A stretch of 64,000 bases of DNA from Candidatus Nomurabacteria bacterium. GTDB taxonomy: Bacteria > Patescibacteriota > Saccharimonadia > Saccharimonadales > VXPC01. The notes under the pieces were generated by a model that did not search any database, had not been told where the DNA came from, and worked only from the letters and a program-made list of their open reading frames with translations. Shown piece by piece: positions 11,597 to 19,875 of this stretch. The stretch covers positions 421,854-485,853 of the forward strand of contig JACKGQ010000001.1 in assembly GCA_020631905.1 (NCBI GenBank). The letters are read 5' to 3'. The position numbers and the translations under genes are program-made. Numbering within the stretch: the stretch's first letter is position 1; every line of letters starts with the position of its first letter.

Positions 11597-12343
11597 ATGT
11601 CAAGAGAGCATGATGAACATATGCCCGAGCAGTCAGGTCACGATCACGATGTCGATGATAGATTGCCTTGCGCCGATCAACACCAGCATCAACACGACCA
11701 TGCCGAGGCCGGCCATAGCCATAGTTTGTCCGATATCACGCTCGATGAAGCCGAAGGCCACTTACGAGATGATGCAAGGGTTCTGAGCGCAGTTGGCGGT
11801 GCGGCTGTTGTTAGCGAAGCAGTCGGTTTGTCGTATCTAAAAACAGTTTTTTCGCTGGGGGGTGAAGATGCCTGGTGGGTAATTCGTAATGCTCGCAAAG
11901 CCTGGCGCAATGAAACAGGTAACCGCTGGCGAAAACTAAATGCTGCTTTCCAGGCAAGCAAAATATCTTTAGCTACAGTTGTGGCAGTTTCGGCATTTGC
12001 CGCACCGGTTGTCGAGTACATGGTCGACCACTCGCCGAAGCTTGCGACCACTGGTGTTTTTTGTGCTGCCGCAACTGCAACTTCCACAGTCGCACTAATC
12101 GAAGATGCCCGAAATGATCGCCTAAATCATGTGCATACAGACATAGCAGAAATGCACGCGCGCCAGTTTCGCACAGAGGGCATAATTGGTACGTATGTTC
12201 TTGGTTTTGCAGGCTACGAACTTATTGGTAATGGCAACCCAATCTATATGGCAATTGTCGGCGGCACAGACTGTTTATGGACAGGCTTTCGTAGTTGGCG
12301 ATATGTTTCTAGAGTTTCTGAGCTGCACAATCAGACACGATAA
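11597..12343 (+). CDS. Hypothetical membrane protein with a His/Asp-rich N-terminus
   Basis: 13 His in the first ~55 aa (HDEHMPEQSGHDHDVDD...QHQHQHDHAEAGHSH), followed by several hydrophobic helices. Confidence 0.7.
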   Translation: MSREHDEHMPEQSGHDHDVDDRLPCADQHQHQHDHAEAGHSHSLSDITLDEAEGHLRDDARVLSAVGGAAVVSEAVGLSYLKTVFSLGGEDAWWVIRNARKAWRNETGNRWRKLNAAFQASKISLATVVAVSAFAAPVVEYMVDHSPKLATTGVFCAAATATSTVALIEDARNDRLNHVHTDIAEMHARQFRTEGIIGTYVLGFAGYELIGNGNPIYMAIVGGTDCLWTGFRSWRYVSRVSELHNQTR

Positions 12344-12411: not shown

Positions 12412-13368
12412 ATGGCTTCGTCCAAACGTACGACTACTAAAAAACCTAGCACAGCACGACCAAAAGCTGCCAAAAAACCAGCTGCGAGCAAGACAGCCGC
12501 TGTCAAAACAACTTCTAAAAAACCAGTTGCAAAAACGGTAGCAAAAAAAGTAACCAGCAAAACAACTGCTACTAAGGTAGCAAAACCTGCAGCTAAAAAG
12601 AAAAACGCTACAGATAAGTTTATGCAACTAAAACAGTGGAACCTAGCCCTAGGTGTACTTCATGCTGCTCAAGCAGTAGCGGTGTTTTTACTGGCCAAGG
12701 ATTTCCGAGTGCCTTTTAGAACAGAATATCTAACGTTTAACGAAGCTACACAGAGTTTAGAGTCGGCTTCGCGTTTGCTATTCGAACTACCGCTAGCTTG
12801 GCTAATTGTGGCCTTTTTCGCGATGAGCTCGATAGCCCATTTTGTAATTGCCGGACCTTGGTTTAAAAAATATAAAGCTGATTTAGAAAAAGGTATGAAC
12901 CGTGCTCGCTGGGTAGAGTACGCTGTAAGCGCCAGTACGATGATGGTCGCGATCGCAGCATTAGTTGGTGTAGTTAGTTTACCACTAGCCTTTAGCATGT
13001 TTGCATTAACTGCAGTCATGAACTTACTTGGTTTAGTTATGGAAACGCACAATCAGGGTCAAGCCAAACCAAATTGGCTGAGTTATTGGGTTGGCACAAT
13101 TGCCGGCTTAGTACCTTGGCTTGTTGTTGCCAGCTACTTTGTTAGTAACTGGTTTTATGGCAGTGGCAATCCGCCAACCTTTGTTTACATTATTTTTGTA
13201 AGCATTTTTGTAGCCTTTAGTAGTTTTGCAGTTAATATGTGGTTGCAGTACAAAAAGAAAGGCAAGTGGGCCGACTATCTTTACGGCGAAAAAGCCTATA
13301 TGGTTCTTAGCCTTGTTGCCAAAAGCGCCTTAGCTTGGCAAATATTTGGCGGTACTTTGCGCCCATAA
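12412..13368 (+). CDS. Heliorhodopsin, with a possible Lys/Ala/Thr-rich N-terminal extension
   Basis: aa 74-318 match heliorhodopsin along the whole length (GVLHAAQ; IAHFVI; RWVEYAVSAS; GLVPW; GEKAYMVLSLVAKSALAWQIFGGTL). Schiff-base Lys304 is at nt 13321-13323. The alternative start at M71 (nt 12622) would give a canonical-length protein. Confidence 0.88.
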   Translation: MASSKRTTTKKPSTARPKAAKKPAASKTAAVKTTSKKPVAKTVAKKVTSKTTATKVAKPAAKKKNATDKFMQLKQWNLALGVLHAAQAVAVFLLAKDFRVPFRTEYLTFNEATQSLESASRLLFELPLAWLIVAFFAMSSIAHFVIAGPWFKKYKADLEKGMNRARWVEYAVSASTMMVAIAALVGVVSLPLAFSMFALTAVMNLLGLVMETHNQGQAKPNWLSYWVGTIAGLVPWLVVASYFVSNWFYGSGNPPTFVYIIFVSIFVAFSSFAVNMWLQYKKKGKWADYLYGEKAYMVLSLVAKSALAWQIFGGTLRP

Positions 13369-14079: not shown

Positions 14080-14133
14080 AAAAAGAGAAAACCCCGGCCA
14101 ACGAGTGGCCAAGGGCTCTCTAGTTGGTCGGGG
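14080..14133 (-). terminator. Rho-independent terminator of the small minus-strand membrane gene (also closes the convergent HAD gene)
   Basis: On the minus strand, CCCCGACCAAC...GTTGGCCGGGG is followed by TTTTCTCTTTTT. An inner GGCCA-ACGAG-TGGCC hairpin is present. The sequence is related to 39458-39520. Confidence 0.7.
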
Positions 14134-14449
14134 CGTTGCGGTGTTCGCGAGCGTACTTCGATAGCAGGTAGAACATAATTCCAAGTCCATACCATGCACA
14201 GAAGAACATAGCTGCGCCGAACAAGTTTGATTCCGCAAGGCCTCCAAGGTAAACCGCAACCCCGAGCGGGATAAACGGTATGAAAGTGAACAAGAACAAG
14301 ATCCACGAAATACCGTAGGTAAGCCTCCAGGGCAAACTACAGCCTTCCGCGTCTTTCGAATGCTGCCAGATGATGAAACAGAACAACCCCACCACCAGAA
14401 ACAGGGCGACGATGTCCATTACCATATCCCAGATTTCTGAGGTGGTCAC
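14120..14449 (-). CDS. Small hydrophobic protein (~109 aa, 3-4 TM)
   Basis: GTG at 14449 with AAGGAG 7 nt upstream. The ORF track extends to 14476. It has its own terminator. Confidence 0.65.
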   Translation of the reverse strand: MTTSEIWDMVMDIVALFLVVGLFCFIIWQHSKDAEGCSLPWRLTYGISWILFLFTFIPFIPLGVAVYLGGLAESNLFGAAMFFCAWYGLGIMFYLLSKYAREHRNAPTN

Positions 14450-14541: not shown

Positions 14542-15129
14542 TTATTGACCGAAGAGCTCTTGAGCATATTCGACGTTAGCATCACGCACTGCCGTCTGAC
14601 AATCAAAATAGATATTAGGTCCTGCAGACATGCCGCAGGCTACATTTCCCATATATTCCTCGGAAAATCCCAACTTTCCATGTGGCTTATCAGATTTTGT
14701 AAATTTAGCATTTTCATCAATATATTTCGTAAATGTATTGTATTGTTGGGCATCTGATTCCGGGTAGGTGATTGTTAGATAGCATATTTGATTGCCTCCA
14801 TACTTTTCCTGTGTAATTCCGCAAGAGTTAGTAAACTCAGCATCAGCTGATATGGATGAGTTTGTAAAATCAACTAATTCATTAAAGTCTCTGAATAGGT
14901 TAGTCATAAAACGGCGATTCTGCCAATCGTCGTATTTACCATTTAGCCATATACTCAAAGGTATAAACAAAAGTAATATAAAAAAGCTAACCAGTTTATG
15001 TTTAAAGGCTAAGCTAACAACTTTATGCAGCATAGAGACGTTACTGGACTGCTTTGAGACTACTTTTGGGGTAGCTTGCTTGCTGGCTGGAGTTTTCTTT
15101 TTCGGAGTAGTTTTACTTGCTCTGGGCAT
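14542..15129 (-). CDS. Hypothetical membrane-anchored protein: Lys-rich N-terminus, one TM helix, Cys-containing extracytoplasmic domain
   Basis: MPRASKTTPKKKTPASKQATPK tail, a single TM helix (LVSFFILLLFIPLSIWL), and 4 Cys in the exported domain. It starts 12 nt after the upstream SGNH gene. Confidence 0.7.
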   Translation of the reverse strand: MPRASKTTPKKKTPASKQATPKVVSKQSSNVSMLHKVVSLAFKHKLVSFFILLLFIPLSIWLNGKYDDWQNRRFMTNLFRDFNELVDFTNSSISADAEFTNSCGITQEKYGGNQICYLTITYPESDAQQYNTFTKYIDENAKFTKSDKPHGKLGFSEEYMGNVACGMSAGPNIYFDCQTAVRDANVEYAQELFGQ

Positions 15130-15141
15130 AGATTAAGTATA

Positions 15142-18090
15142 TTACTTATGCTTATTTACAGCAAAAGTAACTCCTACCATAGCACCAAATAAACCTAAGA
15201 CAATTAGAAACAGCATCCAATTATGCCCAGCTAATTTGTTGTCGGTGCTTGTGTCGCTATTTTCAGGATTGGCTATTGTTTGGTTGTCGGACTGAGCACC
15301 TAATACCTTGGTGCTTTTATTTCCTGCTGTAGATTTCGCGGAATTAGCAGCTGAAACTCCTGCAGCAAACAGTTGGGTGACTTTATTTGTAAGGGATAGA
15401 GCCGGAGTTATGACCGACACATCGCGCTGTGGTTTTAGATTGCTAGGGTCGGCTGGGTCGTCGTTATTACCACTATTACCATGCAGTTTTTCGGCACCAA
15501 CATTAAGGTCGCAGATATCATCGATGCCGTCTCTATCGGTGTCTTGACCGGAGTTGGGTACAAGTATGCAACTATCTATTGTGTCGACTATCCCATCGCC
15601 GTCAAAGTCTTGCTGGTCGAAACCAAGCAGAAAACTATCGATGTATTGGTGCTTTTTGCCATAGATATCGACTGCATCAATAACTATCTCATGGCTACCA
15701 GGCTCTAGGTTGTCTGGCAGTGAAAAGCCGACTGTTAGCTTTCCGAGCGTATCTACTTGCCCGGAAAATACAAGCTGCGGGGTAGAGTGTACGTATACAT
15801 CGACCACCGAGCCTGGCATTAACCCAGTGATTTCTTTGGAGATCTGGCTAGGAGTACCTGGATCTGGATAAGTTAGCTTTAATGGATCAATACTGTATTC
15901 ATCTGCCAAGGCTTCGACGACGGCGTCGCGAGCATCATTTCCAAAGACAACTGAGTCGGGCAATGGTGTAGGCGATGCAGTTGGTTCGGGCATCGGCTGG
16001 GTTAGATTGCTGGTAGCTAGGAGGATTTGTGACTCATATAATTGGTGGCCTAACTGGTTTGGGTGGTACGAGCTGTTACCAATACACTCGGTCGGACAGA
16101 GTCCAAATAAATCTGTATCGGTCTCGATATCTAGCCCATTCACTGCGATTAGACCAGGGTCCTTATTCGAACACAGCCAGTAGCCGTTAAAAGTATCTTC
16201 GACATTAACATAAAATACCCCAGCTTCGTCGGCGGCGGCTTTAATAATCTGGTTGAGGTACTTGGTGGTATTAAAAATAAATTCTCTCTCTGTCGCGTTA
16301 AATAGCACTCCGATGTGGCAATCGTTGGCAGTCGGGCTGGTGATTGTTGGGTAGCCAAGAATATATATACGACTCTCCGGAGCACTTTGTTTGAGCTTTA
16401 GATAGGCCTTAACTAGTTTTGGTTTAACTTTGGCAATTCGGACAATTGTCTGTGCATGTTCAGCTGTGCCGGGCTCGGCTTGCGGACAAGTACCCGGACT
16501 GCTCGGAAAGATACAAGCTTGAATGAAATCCGAGAAGAATGCATCGTTCCCACCGATACCTAGGGTAATTTGTTCGGGGTTACTATAGCCTTTACGGTTC
16601 AAATTGTCTGGTAATAAACCGGGGTGTAAAAAACTTTCTTGGGTAGATATTCCTGATTGCCATTCCTCCATGAGGCTGGATGCACTAAAGCGGTACTGAT
16701 TATTCGTAGAAGTGAACTCTTCTTGTGTACCATCACTCTGCTTTTCGCCAAGCGGGCTTCCAATAATATTGTGAGTTTTGGCACCACTGCAGGCAACCGA
16801 ATGAAACAAACCATCTGCTGGCGGTTGGCTTGAATTGTCTAGCAGGTATCCAAGTTCCATCGCCAGAAGGTAAGAGTAGCTTTTGCGGGAAATATGGCAC
16901 ATATTACGTTCCGCATAGGTACTAATATCACCCTTCTCATCTGTGCCTGGCTCGTAGTCATAGGCGCCTTCGCCGCTAGAGTAGCTATCTCCCATAGCCA
17001 GATAACCTTCTGCACCGTTCGGTTCGCCCAAAGAATTGGCCCGACTAGCAGGGTAGAACTCTAGCCGAATATTCTGGCCTGTAGCTGGGTTGGTGCGATC
17101 ATGAATAAAACGTAGCCCATCTGGGGTTATCCACGAGCCTAAAGATTTAGTGTAGTTACTAGTATAAGGTACTAAATCTGCAGCGCTATTGTAACTCGGC
17201 ACACAAGTTGCCGGCAGGTTGGCGAAACCGTTACTCGGCCAGTTGCCATCGGAGTACGAAGTACACAATGTTAGGTCGTAAACTACTGGTAGCCCGCTAT
17301 CTACTACAACATATCGACCATATGAGTCGACGTTAATATCGAGAAACGGCATAGTTGTTGACTTGCTAATTGCAAATGGGGTGTAGCTACGCGTTTGTAG
17401 ATCTATCATTGCAAAACCTTGTCCATAAACCATTACCGCTGCGTAGCGTCCGTTAGCCGAAAACCAGATGCCCTGAAAACTCAATACCACGTATTGATTA
17501 TCGGAATACCTATAAGCATCTGTAAAACTAGCTGGGTCGACTGTAAAACCTTTTTGTTCAAGCGCTGACACACCACTGCCGATTGTGCGAGTAGTAAATT
17601 TGCCATTTGTGCCGGCCTTGAAACCAGAATTAAAACTTAGATAACGGGCGTAGGTTATACGTGGATAGGGCTGAAGATAAAGATAACTATCACTATTCGG
17701 GGCAAACCATAAATCACCTTGAGTATTGCGCAGCTCATACATTTTTTCGGGAGTATCGAGGTCTGGCGCCCAGAAACCCGGCCAGTGATAACCAGCGTTG
17801 CTTCGAGTTAAGCAATAGTCGCCAAGTGGTTGGAGAATCTCCTCGGTAGTATTGGTGTATTTGTAGGAGATGAGCGGGCTATTTTGGGTTTCGATTTCTT
17901 TAAGCAAAACCTTATTGGTGTCGAAGTAGGCACATGTCCCCATCTCGCGAGTATCTGGATTAGATGGGAAATCAATCTGTCGATTGATAACTGTGTCATT
18001 CCATTCACTGGCTGCTTGTAAAGTAGAAGGCAGGGAAATATAGGTTATAACAAAGAATAAGACTAAACCAAAAAACCTCGCACCTCGCAT
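15142..18090 (-). CDS. Large surface-anchored SGNH/GDSL hydrolase with thrombospondin-type-3-like Ca-binding repeats (982 aa)
   Basis: Signal peptide (...PSTLQA/AS). GDS block (YLAMGDSYSSGEG), GxND block (GIGGNDAFF), and a C-terminal catalytic region (SSYHPNQLGH). Asp-rich repeats DFDGDGIVDTIDSC...DTDRDGIDDICD. S/N/T-rich stalk, then a C-terminal TM helix ending in NKHK. Confidence 0.82.
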   Translation of the reverse strand: MRGARFFGLVLFFVITYISLPSTLQAASEWNDTVINRQIDFPSNPDTREMGTCAYFDTNKVLLKEIETQNSPLISYKYTNTTEEILQPLGDYCLTRSNAGYHWPGFWAPDLDTPEKMYELRNTQGDLWFAPNSDSYLYLQPYPRITYARYLSFNSGFKAGTNGKFTTRTIGSGVSALEQKGFTVDPASFTDAYRYSDNQYVVLSFQGIWFSANGRYAAVMVYGQGFAMIDLQTRSYTPFAISKSTTMPFLDINVDSYGRYVVVDSGLPVVYDLTLCTSYSDGNWPSNGFANLPATCVPSYNSAADLVPYTSNYTKSLGSWITPDGLRFIHDRTNPATGQNIRLEFYPASRANSLGEPNGAEGYLAMGDSYSSGEGAYDYEPGTDEKGDISTYAERNMCHISRKSYSYLLAMELGYLLDNSSQPPADGLFHSVACSGAKTHNIIGSPLGEKQSDGTQEEFTSTNNQYRFSASSLMEEWQSGISTQESFLHPGLLPDNLNRKGYSNPEQITLGIGGNDAFFSDFIQACIFPSSPGTCPQAEPGTAEHAQTIVRIAKVKPKLVKAYLKLKQSAPESRIYILGYPTITSPTANDCHIGVLFNATEREFIFNTTKYLNQIIKAAADEAGVFYVNVEDTFNGYWLCSNKDPGLIAVNGLDIETDTDLFGLCPTECIGNSSYHPNQLGHQLYESQILLATSNLTQPMPEPTASPTPLPDSVVFGNDARDAVVEALADEYSIDPLKLTYPDPGTPSQISKEITGLMPGSVVDVYVHSTPQLVFSGQVDTLGKLTVGFSLPDNLEPGSHEIVIDAVDIYGKKHQYIDSFLLGFDQQDFDGDGIVDTIDSCILVPNSGQDTDRDGIDDICDLNVGAEKLHGNSGNNDDPADPSNLKPQRDVSVITPALSLTNKVTQLFAAGVSAANSAKSTAGNKSTKVLGAQSDNQTIANPENSDTSTDNKLAGHNWMLFLIVLGLFGAMVGVTFAVNKHK

Positions 18091-18129
18091 TGCACATATA
18101 TTGTAGCAAAGCTTAAGCGCCTATGGCAG

Positions 18130-19875
18130 TTATTCTATGAAACCACCAGATTGATGTTGCCAGAGCTCGTAGTAAAGACCTTTTTCCTCGAGCAATTCGG
18201 CGTGGGTACCGTCCTCGACAATCCTGCCATCGTCCATAACCACAATTCGATCCATATGCTTTAATGTGCTTAGTCGATGTGCGATAACTATACTGGTTCG
18301 ACCCTTCATAACGGTGTTTAAGGCTTTCTGAATGTGGGCTTCACTCTGGCTATCGAGGGCACTGGTAGCCTCATCGAAAAGTAAAACCGGCGCATTTTTG
18401 GCTAAGGCTCGTGCGATAGCTACTCGTTGACGTTGACCTCCAGATAGCTTTATACCTTGGTCGCCGACAACCGTGTCCAGACCTTTGGGTAGGTCTTTTG
18501 CGAACTCGTCTACGTATGCTTGTTTAGTAACCCGCACAAGTTCTTTTTGATCGAGTTTGCTCGAGCCGTAGATGATATTATCTTTAATACTTCGCCTAAA
18601 TAGAGAGGGCTCTTGAGGTACATAAGCGATTACTTTGCGTGTGTTCGCCGAACCTAATTTGTCGATATTTACACCTGACATATAAATGTGCCCGTTGGTA
18701 GGTTCGTAGAGCCTAAGCAAAAGTTTGGTTAGGGTGGTTTTTCCCGATCCGGACTTGCCGACAATACCAACTTTTTGTGAAGCAGGGATTTCTAGATTAA
18801 TCGATTTTAACGATTCGGTGTTTGAGTCTGGATACTGGAAGTCTAGGTTATTGATACTAATAGACACTGGGCCTGCAGGTAACTTTTTACTTGTTTTTGG
18901 TTCTGAGACTTTCTGATATTTCTCTTCAACTTCGTCGAGGCCGGTGGCAAGGCTAGTTTCTTCGCTAAAGTTTCTGATAAAGTGAGAAATATTATTAACA
19001 TTGCGAGTTGTCATAGCTACATAAGACTGGAATAACACATATGTACCAATGGTTATGTCGCCGCGTACAAAAAACCATAAACCAATGATGACGAAAAGTG
19101 CTTCTAGGGCAAAGCCACTAAACTGGACAATCATTTGCTGGCGTACAGCATAAAAGGCCCGAATAAAGCCAACTTGCCATTGTTTTCGACCAACCTCTAG
19201 TAGTCTTTCTAATTCTCGGGTCTGTGATTGTTGCTGTTGTACAAGCTCGGCATTTTGAATTGTGTCGGTCAGCTCTGTACCCCAGTCGTCGAAAGCTTGG
19301 TTAGAAGTTTTATTGATCTCGACTCGCTTGCGCGCAAACCAAATTAAGAGAATGCTTGCTGGTATAAACACACCCAAATAGATAAAAGCGAAAGTTATAC
19401 TCTTTGAGGCAATCACACCAATCGTGATAATTGTGGTAATGATGATGTTAATTAACGACTCGGATTCGATTCGAAAAACATTTATATACGAGGCTTTGCG
19501 GTTGCCTTTTAGCTGTAGGTCGCCTTTACCGTTGTCTACCAAGGCAGCGTAGGGCAAGTTATGAATTTGAAAGACACCTTTAGCACGCCGTTCCAAACCA
19601 AATTTTTTGTTAAGTATCACATCGGAGCGTCTAGAAATTGAGTAGAGAGCAAAAACTAAAGCCGACAAGCCGACCGAAAGACCAGCTAAGAACTTCCACT
19701 TGCCGGACAAACTGCCATTTGCCGCCGAATCGATTATATATGCCGACATAAGTGGGATAGCCTGAGACGAGATAACATTAGCTGGAACAGATAGGTAGAA
19801 ACCTATCGTATGCAGCTTTTCGGCCCACATATCTTTTAACACATCTTTGATAAGGTTTTTTAAGTGATGGTTCAA
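18130..19875 (-). CDS. ABC exporter, fused permease and ATPase (MsbA/type I exporter-like)
   Basis: Six-TM N-terminal domain. Walker A GKSGSGKTT, signature LSGGQRQR, Walker B LLFDEATSALD. Confidence 0.9.
   Translation of the reverse strand: MNHHLKNLIKDVLKDMWAEKLHTIGFYLSVPANVISSQAIPLMSAYIIDSAANGSLSGKWKFLAGLSVGLSALVFALYSISRRSDVILNKKFGLERRAKGVFQIHNLPYAALVDNGKGDLQLKGNRKASYINVFRIESESLINIIITTIITIGVIASKSITFAFIYLGVFIPASILLIWFARKRVEINKTSNQAFDDWGTELTDTIQNAELVQQQQSQTRELERLLEVGRKQWQVGFIRAFYAVRQQMIVQFSGFALEALFVIIGLWFFVRGDITIGTYVLFQSYVAMTTRNVNNISHFIRNFSEETSLATGLDEVEEKYQKVSEPKTSKKLPAGPVSISINNLDFQYPDSNTESLKSINLEIPASQKVGIVGKSGSGKTTLTKLLLRLYEPTNGHIYMSGVNIDKLGSANTRKVIAYVPQEPSLFRRSIKDNIIYGSSKLDQKELVRVTKQAYVDEFAKDLPKGLDTVVGDQGIKLSGGQRQRVAIARALAKNAPVLLFDEATSALDSQSEAHIQKALNTVMKGRTSIVIAHRLSTLKHMDRIVVMDDGRIVEDGTHAELLEEKGLYYELWQHQSGGFIE

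Follow-up and report, generated by a model that had tools for sequence, protein, structure and literature searches.

A putative surface-anchored SGNH hydrolase and its linked small membrane protein in some Saccharibacteria lineages

The locus and its genes

We analyzed a 64,000-nucleotide (nt) stretch of contig JACKGQ010000001.1 (assembly GCA_020631905.1, positions 421,854 to 485,853), here called the window, and within it a string of minus-strand genes whose central member encodes a 982-amino-acid (aa) protein with an SGNH/GDSL hydrolase domain. Three co-directional open reading frames (ORFs), for proteins of 581, 982 and 195 aa, are separated by gaps of 39 and 12 nt (Table 1). The initial annotation of this stretch had listed them with exactly these coordinates and gaps, and the same three products come out of an independent gene calling of an identical locus on a Logan contig. 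Judging from its layout, the string might be termed an operon. The first gene encodes an ATP-binding cassette (ABC) exporter, and the initial annotation had presented the three genes as a surface lipase coupled to a lipid-type exporter, with the 195-aa protein as third member. Our core finding is instead a two-gene module, the hydrolase and the 195-aa protein, belonging to some Saccharibacteria lineages; the exporter is not part of it.

A Candidate Phyla Radiation (CPR) organism had been inferred from the sequence alone, and it is indeed a Saccharibacterium: the 195-aa protein is identical to KC878_02255 from a Saccharibacteria metagenome-assembled genome, and the named homologues of the 982-aa protein are all from Saccharibacteria.

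Two data sets underlie the counts given below. Conservation was scored in an alignment of 121 sequences, namely the window protein and 120 homologues. For gene neighborhoods, species-representative genomes were scanned with the family alignment, which yielded 457 relatives, and the best 80 loci were used. Across the family the architecture is fixed, and consists of a signal peptide, a divergent, predicted beta-propeller, the SGNH domain, an immunoglobulin (Ig)-like spacer, Asp repeats resembling those of thrombospondin type 3 (TSP3), a stalk and a C-terminal anchor.

Table 1. Positions of genes, protein segments and candidate signals within the window (TM, transmembrane)
Feature	Position	Strand	Basis
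982-aa surface hydrolase, whole gene	15142..18090	-	ORF, Pfam, homologues
Signal peptide, aa 1-26 (MRGARFFGLVLFFVITYISLPSTLQA), predicted	18013..18090	-	hydropathy
All-beta, beta-propeller-like domain, aa 27-358, predicted	17017..18012	-	AlphaFold2, Foldseek, family profile
SGNH/GDSL hydrolase domain, aa 359-700	15991..17016	-	Pfam, Protein Data Bank matches, column conservation
Ser369 codon	16984-16986	-	block I nucleophile
His676 codon	16063-16065	-	block V
Ig-like spacer, aa ~735-820, putative	15631..15888	-	sub-threshold Big_13
Two TSP3-like Asp repeats, predicted Ca-binding, Cys pair C841/C860, aa 821-862	15505..15630	-	motif, profile
Low-complexity S/N/T/A-rich stalk, aa 863-950	15241..15504	-	read from sequence
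C-terminal TM helix and basic tail (…NWMLFLIVLGLFGAMVGVTFAVNKHK), predicted	15145..15240	-	hydropathy
195-aa bitopic partner protein ("SMALL")	14542..15129	-	ORF, hydropathy, family hidden Markov model
ABC exporter half-transporter, 581 aa	18130..19875	-	ABC_membrane and ABC_tran match
Promoter-like site CTGCCA-18-TACAAT with TG extension, in 39-nt gap	18100..18129	-	consensus match only
109-aa protein, 3 TM segments, GTG start, AAGGAG upstream	14120..14449	-	ORF and hydropathy
First terminator-like hairpin past the gene string, just after the 109-aa ORF	14114-14092	-	consensus match only

The catalytic domain

The initial annotation had recognized a complete SGNH core (GDS, GxND and a C-terminal His), and the alignment bears this out. 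The window protein has each of the blocks GDS (residues 367-369), CSG (434-436), GGND (513-516) and HPN (676-678), and they hardly vary within the family: G367-D368-S369 is found in 121 of the 121 sequences, H676-P677 in 120 and Gly436 in 119, while within the third block G514 is kept in 121, N515 in 119 and D516 in 117. Pfam scores for the window protein lie near their cutoffs. Lipase_GDSL_2 (PF13472) passes marginally, at E 6.4e-8 and 33.7 bits against a cutoff of 32.9, and PF00657 falls just under, at 22.9 against 23.6.

Structures in the Protein Data Bank (PDB) place the domain more precisely. A single-sequence search matched 4HYQ, the phospholipase A1 (PLA1) of Streptomyces albidoflavus, at 8e-12 and 5MAL, the S. 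rimosus lipase SrL, at 8e-8. With a profile of 46 family sequences, E values were 1.7e-28 for 4HYQ, 1.9e-26 for 5MAL and 2.5e-6 for 1ESC, an esterase of S. scabies. These three were the sole SGNH structures among the best 60 of 68 profile matches, and no carbohydrate esterase appeared among those 60. Six cysteines (398, 434, 526, 535, 591 and 640), kept in 120-121 of the 121 sequences, align with cysteines of 4HYQ and 5MAL and would form three disulfides in the domain. Two insertions set the family apart from the Streptomyces enzymes, one at aa ~376-397, after block I, with 70% mean identity where present, and one at aa ~440-505, between blocks II and III.

On these matches we place the catalytic domain, as a new and distant member, in a known clade of lipolytic Streptomyces enzymes. 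Its active site is, as far as column conservation tells, intact and under strong selection, and the 982-aa protein is very probably a secreted, anchored and active SGNH acyl-esterase.

The flanking modules

As had been noted at the outset, the protein begins with a hydrophobic, signal-peptide-like segment, and a hydrophobic N-terminus is likewise found in 100 of the 120 homologues. The segment that follows, aa 27-358, had been guessed to be a beta-propeller. Pfam gave no match for it, also at relaxed thresholds. An AlphaFold2 (AF2) model based on 29 trimmed homologues is all-beta, with a predicted local distance difference test score (pLDDT) of 85.8 and a predicted template modeling score (pTM) of 0.85. 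Foldseek against the PDB returned 261 matches to this model at E<1e-3; the best 50 were all of WD40/TolB type at probabilities of ~1.0, led by eIF3i (2e-6) and TolB (5e-5), with low template modeling scores (TM-scores) of 0.2-0.36. The family profile adds weak WD40 matches on aa ~165-310 (E 1.5e-5 to 4e-3). The modeled structure thus supports the beta-propeller guess at the level of fold class.

In the C-terminal half, two of the modules proposed earlier emerge more clearly from the family than from the window protein. The Ig-like spacer is sub-threshold in the window protein (Big_13, E 0.054), but PF19077 is recorded for several homologues. The TSP3-like repeats also remain under the Pfam cutoff in the single sequence (TSP_3, E 2e-3, 18.1 bits against 25), but the motif DxDxDGxxDxxD occurs in 105 of the 121 sequences and the family profile matches the matrix protein COMP at E 3.6e-10; the motif is present in two copies, in which the D and C columns are invariant. 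The S/N/T-rich stalk and the C-terminal TM anchor can both be recognized, the one by reading the sequence and the other by hydropathy, much as first described. The TM segment, at aa ~953-975, is preceded by KLAGHNW and followed by NKHK, and with neither LPXTG nor LxxTG at the C-terminus of the window protein we take it for a plain TM anchor. The C-termini of 23 of the 120 homologues (including P0007-P0039) carry an LxxTG motif (LSATG, LSNTG, LQTTG etc.), then a hydrophobic stretch with a basic tail behind it, by sequence a sortase-type sorting signal.

The modules differ widely in mean pairwise identity, which is 47% for the TSP3 repeats, 45% for the SGNH domain, 28% for the Ig-like spacer, 18-26% for the propeller, the most divergent of the named domains, and 16% for the stalk. 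The protein thus joins a conserved catalytic head to a fast-evolving, putative recognition module.

Spread of the family

The best 80 of the 457 relatives come almost entirely from Saccharibacteria/Saccharimonadales; in the tail are Actinomycetota and a few others, which match in the SGNH part only. A search of 1.84 billion representatives with a profile of the propeller domain found at least 291 proteins (clusters at 50% identity) at E<1e-30. The domain lies almost always at residues ~30-350 of these proteins, nearly all of which measure 850-1400 aa, ~900 aa being typical. By this uniform size and position, the N-terminal module is specific to this hydrolase family. Database names of the homologues are "hypothetical protein" or "SGNH/GDSL hydrolase family protein".

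Beyond Saccharibacteria, the sequences closest to the SGNH core come from Actinomycetota (Nocardioides, Kribbia, Actinokineospora, Solirubrobacterales; loci L071, L074, L075, L077, L080 and L081). This is the phylum of the known hosts of Saccharibacteria, and it is conceivable that the catalytic domain was acquired from hosts.

The 195-aa protein and other partner families

The 195-aa protein has every feature first ascribed to it: a Lys-rich N-terminal tail, a single TM helix (aa 37-55) and an ectodomain with four cysteines (C103, C116, C165 and C177). No Pfam or NCBIfam model matches it, and Pfam at relaxed thresholds gave nothing meaningful for the ectodomain. A single-sequence search returned only the protein itself, as if it were an orphan, but phmmer and a local hidden Markov model (HMM), run on the ORFs flanking hydrolase homologues, showed otherwise. 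With phmmer, homologues were found adjoining the hydrolase gene in the four closest loci. The HMM extended the family to 21 ORFs in 20 of the 80 loci, and all 21 abut the hydrolase gene, or a second copy of their own kind that abuts it. They lie upstream or downstream and on either strand, often tail-to-tail with the hydrolase; tandem duplicates occur in L005 (2594-3211, 3405-3968) and L009 (10909-11487, 11575-12165). Full-length members have the Lys-rich tail, one TM helix and exactly four cysteines, three of them invariant and the fourth kept in at least 90%. Look-ups starting from three homologues of the 195-aa protein (P0126, P0136 and P0133) led each time to a Lipase_GDSL protein of 897-929 aa encoded tail-to-tail at a distance of 4-18 nt. 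The 195-aa protein is genuinely co-conserved with the hydrolase.

Other hydrolase clades have other neighbors. In a separate clade the same downstream (+1) position is taken by a family of ~110-aa bitopic proteins, s113, with a Lys-rich tail, a TM helix and the motifs "YAKWxECG..P" and "FCTPxEAExAGYSA" (L045, L046, L049, L052, L054, L058, L059, L062, L064, L066, L068, L069, L073 and L079). Aligned by hhalign, the 195-aa family and s113 have the TM helix alone in common (probability 21%), so we treat them as unrelated. In a further clade the co-directional +1 gene encodes a multi-TM protein of ~320-420 aa (~400) with a Cys-containing extracellular loop (L008, L011, L013, L015, L016 and L021), which might represent a third type of partner. 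A neighbor-joining tree of the hydrolases shows the type of partner to go with the clade. By crude gene calls, the 71 Saccharibacteria loci comprise 19 with the 195-aa family, 11 with s113, 3 with other small one-TM proteins, 29 with no recognizable small partner and 9 cut by a contig end. We also considered that the partner compensates for hydrolases lacking a C-terminal anchor, and found no correlation.

The ABC exporter

The 581-aa protein matches ABC_membrane (E 5.5e-12) and ABC_tran (E 3e-34). It had been called MsbA-like, a lipid-type exporter, and this label is apt only in a generic sense. The NCBIfam MsbA models score 338 bits against a cutoff of 602 (TIGR02203) and 279 against 867 (PRK11176), all NCBIfam equivalogs are far below cutoff, and the models for glucan, cyanophycin-associated, type I secretion and heme/Cyd exporters score about as well as those for MsbA. 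By these scores the protein is a generic type I exporter half-transporter, to which no lipid substrate can be assigned.

Its position beside the hydrolase is not conserved either. Searching the window proteins by phmmer against six-frame ORFs, we found no ABC exporter adjoining a hydrolase homologue in any of the 80 related loci, the only traces being weak matches to the nucleotide-binding domain several kilobases away. Clustering of the neighbors up to four genes on either side of the hydrolase homologues produced no ABC cluster, and in the three loci reached through homologues of the 195-aa protein no ABC exporter lies beside the hydrolase gene. Checking co-occurrence of the three genes, as the initial annotation had recommended, thus gives a divided result: the hydrolase and the 195-aa gene are co-conserved, and the ABC gene is not. 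As no ABC exporter is adjacent in the 80 loci, the proposed coupling of a surface lipase to a lipid exporter fails. The ABC exporter is an accidental neighbor outside the conserved module, and the link to it is hence no lead to pursue.

Transcription signals and neighboring genes

The ABC gene starts at a TTG codon, with AGGAG 8 nt upstream. Within the 39-nt gap that follows it, a TG-extended -10-like element, TGcTACAAT (a consensus match only), stops 10 nt short of the hydrolase ATG, which has no Shine-Dalgarno sequence ahead of it in the gap. Together these two features are a hint of a hydrolase transcript separate from that of the ABC gene; the hydrolase could be transcribed from a promoter of its own, into an mRNA that is leaderless or nearly so. 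The 12-nt gap between the hydrolase and the 195-aa gene also has no Shine-Dalgarno sequence, which fits co-transcription of these two. No terminator-like hairpins were found between the ABC, hydrolase and 195-aa genes.

A co-directional ORF for a 109-aa protein lies 92 nt beyond the 195-aa gene, with a promoter-like site at 14514-14487. The unit may end with this gene. No homologues of its product were found in the 80 related loci, and relaxed-threshold Pfam gave nothing meaningful for it. Rfam detected no RNA families in the window.

Two genes from the module, at 12412-13368 on the plus strand, is a heliorhodopsin gene (PF18761, E 1.2e-90), whose product has a Lys/Ala/Thr-rich, histone-H1-like N-terminal extension of ~70 aa. 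At 11597-12343, also on the plus strand, is encoded a 248-aa membrane protein with a His/Asp-rich N-terminus (…HDHDVDD…HQHQHDHAEAGHSHS), which may be a metal transporter or metal-binding protein.

Proposed function and alternatives

Lipid synthesis is missing from CPR bacteria, and their lipids are enriched in lysolipids; a 2024 perspective states that no mechanism of lipid uptake or breakdown had been identified in Patescibacteria, which cannot make membrane lipids themselves (PMC11665869). Phospholipases have been proposed as a means by which CPR bacteria breach their hosts (PMC11665869, PMC8080830), and TM7x causes lipid droplets to form in its host beside the site of attachment (PMC10939385). 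Against this background, host-envelope attack or lipid scavenging, as suggested in the initial annotation, is plausible by analogy. We give a probability of roughly one half to the reading that the module comprises a surface-anchored hydrolase of lipase/PLA1 type and a linked bitopic partner, and acts on host lipids.

From the observed architecture, family membership, catalytic-residue conservation, phyletic restriction and gene pairing, we infer surface topology, lipid substrate, host target and partner role as follows. The hydrolase would be exported via Sec, using its signal peptide, and would be anchored by the C-terminal TM helix, while the stalk, the Ca-binding TSP3 pair and the Ig-like spacer would raise it off the cell surface. 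As an SGNH acyl-ester hydrolase it would employ a Ser369-His676 dyad and an oxyanion hole of Gly436 and Asn515, in a domain with three predicted disulfides. The fast-diverging propeller would most likely recognize the target surface or present the substrate. The chemistry would most likely be hydrolysis of fatty-acyl esters in lipids, phospholipids or others, that are either on the host bacterium or have been released from it, with free fatty acids and lysolipids as products, so that the host membrane would be weakened, the epibiont fed, or both. The 195-aa protein is co-inherited with the hydrolase, and its four-Cys ectodomain would be on the same face of the membrane. Most likely this protein would regulate the enzyme, inhibit it or act in its docking, at the membrane of the producing cell.

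Several points weigh against this reading. The substrate range of SGNH hydrolases is not readable from sequence, and SrL itself is multifunctional (PMC10779480). Both family-specific insertions are next to blocks I and II and could alter specificity. Three residues before the block V His, where 105 of the 121 sequences have Glu and 2 have Asp, the window protein carries Ser673; the corresponding residue of SrL is Asn213, and the N213A variant of SrL is fully active (PMC10779480), so that Ser673 is no argument for inactivity. The structural evidence is uneven, given the low TM-scores of the propeller matches, a weak AF2 model of the 195-aa protein (pLDDT 63) and no Foldseek fold match to that model below E 0.1. 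The 29 of 71 Saccharibacteria loci in which no small partner is recognizable also belong here. Lastly, in the annotation table of the cultured Southlakia epibionticum the sole SGNH entry is SEML1_0376, a single-domain protein of ~190 aa. The family is thus probably absent from at least this one cultured model strain; it would then not be universal among lipid-auxotrophic Saccharibacteria, which argues against a universal role in lipid scavenging.

The SGNH domain might instead strip O-acetyl or other short acyl groups off peptidoglycan, teichoic-acid-like polymers or exopolysaccharide, of the cell itself or of its host, with the propeller binding glycan and envelope remodeling as the outcome. 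Many carbohydrate esterases are SGNH hydrolases, which Lipase_GDSL_2 cannot tell from lipases, and glycan binding is common among beta-propellers. Neighbors of the hydrolase in related loci, moreover, are often envelope genes (FemAB-like, glycosyltransferase, O-antigen-ligase-like, acetyltransferase), but these are inconsistently placed, amid housekeeping genes such as those for TsaD and ValRS. What makes us regard a glycan or peptidoglycan esterase as unlikely is the specific affinity of the domain to the lipolytic clade: among the SGNH structures listed, the family profile finds only the Streptomyces lipase/PLA1/esterase clade, with which it has the six-Cys pattern in common.

It is improbable that the protein is mainly an adhesin, in which propeller, Ig-like spacer and TSP3 repeats on a stalk provide Ca-dependent attachment to the host and the esterase is accessory, for instance in ligand trimming. 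TSP3 repeats do occur in the cell-cell cohesion protein MtsC (a weak NCBIfam match here) and in matrix proteins such as COMP, and rapid divergence of the propeller is what would be expected of a determinant of host specificity. Multiplication of the gene would fit as well: a tandem hydrolase paralogue (~700-1000 aa) is found at +1 or -1 in ~7 loci, and in some genomes hydrolase genes are found at two separate places, such as L057 and L066 of UBA6223. The catalytic domain, however, is strongly conserved and its active-site residues are invariant, which indicates that catalysis is under strong selection and unlikely to be accessory.

A further elaboration, also quite unlikely in our estimate, would make the module a self-protection pair. 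The PLA1-type enzyme would be aimed at the host by its fast-evolving propeller, a co-inherited bitopic, disulfide-stabilized inhibitor would keep it inactive on the cell's own membrane, unrelated partners (s113, the ~400-aa membrane protein) would have been swapped in from clade to clade, and the released lipids would enter the epibiont membrane. If this were true, host lipid would get into Saccharibacteria by way of the released lysolipids and fatty acids, and an entry point long sought would have been found.

A three-gene operon in which ABC exporter, lipase and 195-aa protein cooperate, the exporter moving lipid or the enzyme's products, is very unlikely: the genes do run in one direction, 39 and 12 nt apart and uninterrupted by any terminator-like hairpin, and MsbA-type families are among the best models of the ABC protein, but co-conservation is lacking (an adjoining ABC exporter in 0 of 80 related loci and 0 of 3 partner-seeded loci), MsbA scores are about half the cutoff and other exporter models similar, the 39-nt gap holds a promoter-like element, and an outward-pumping exporter does not fit scavenging.

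Read as a host-directed surface lipase with a linked partner, the module represents a large, lineage-restricted family of lipase/PLA1-type surface enzymes, each combining a variable targeting domain with a dedicated partner gene. As a means by which some Saccharibacteria could damage the membranes of their hosts or harvest them, a function that we infer, it is a concrete candidate that can be tested. In the literature we searched, we did not find described the architecture (propeller, SGNH, Ig-like, TSP3, anchor), its restriction to Saccharibacteria or the clade-specific small membrane partners; for the family in Saccharibacteria there are only generic mentions of an "SGNH hydrolase" (PMC6031116), and the main text of the Southlakia transposon-sequencing paper has nothing on lipases.

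Comparison with known systems

The closest known enzymes are S. albidoflavus PLA1 (4HYQ) and SrL (5MAL), secreted SGNH hydrolases that have the motifs GDSxSSG, (V)ACSGA, GGND and HPN in common with the window protein. The six cysteines are matched in both, and in SrL their equivalents form three disulfides (PMC10779480). Both are also of the same dyad type as the window protein, without an Asp three residues before the His. Alignable identity to them is low, however, and confined to the core blocks. Whereas they are free, single-domain proteins of ~234 aa, the window protein has 982 aa, with propeller, insertions, Ig-like spacer, TSP3 repeats, stalk and anchor, and unlike them it has a dedicated partner gene. 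The S. scabies esterase (1ESC, E 2.5e-6) is a more distant member of the same clade, and its catalytic arrangement is a variant without the classical Asp; it is single-domain and soluble, and its similarity to the window protein is much weaker.

A similar role has been proposed in another phylum, Absconditabacteria. The secreted phospholipase Vamp_34_196 of the CPR predator Vampirococcus lugosii has been proposed to disrupt the host membrane and supply phospholipid to a cell that is auxotrophic for lipids (PMC8080830). The likeness is one of proposed function only, and the passage that describes this enzyme mentions no multidomain anchored architecture or partner gene (PMC8080830).

With MsbA and other type I ABC exporters, the 581-aa neighbor has in common the half-transporter architecture of ABC_membrane and ABC_tran, but it fails every equivalog cutoff and is not co-conserved with the hydrolase.

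The pairing itself recalls the effector and immunity pairs of contact-dependent antagonism, such as Tle/Tli of type VI secretion (T6SS), in which the gene of a lipase effector invariably has beside it a small gene for a protein that is exported or anchored in the membrane. The Saccharibacteria module differs in that there is no T6SS, no similarity of sequence or fold, a catalytic fold unlike that of most Tle families, and a partner gene that is often convergent rather than in an operon. The likeness lies in a membrane-active lipase linked to a small protein on the same side of the membrane, an arrangement that is seen here through gene linkage and predicted topology alone.

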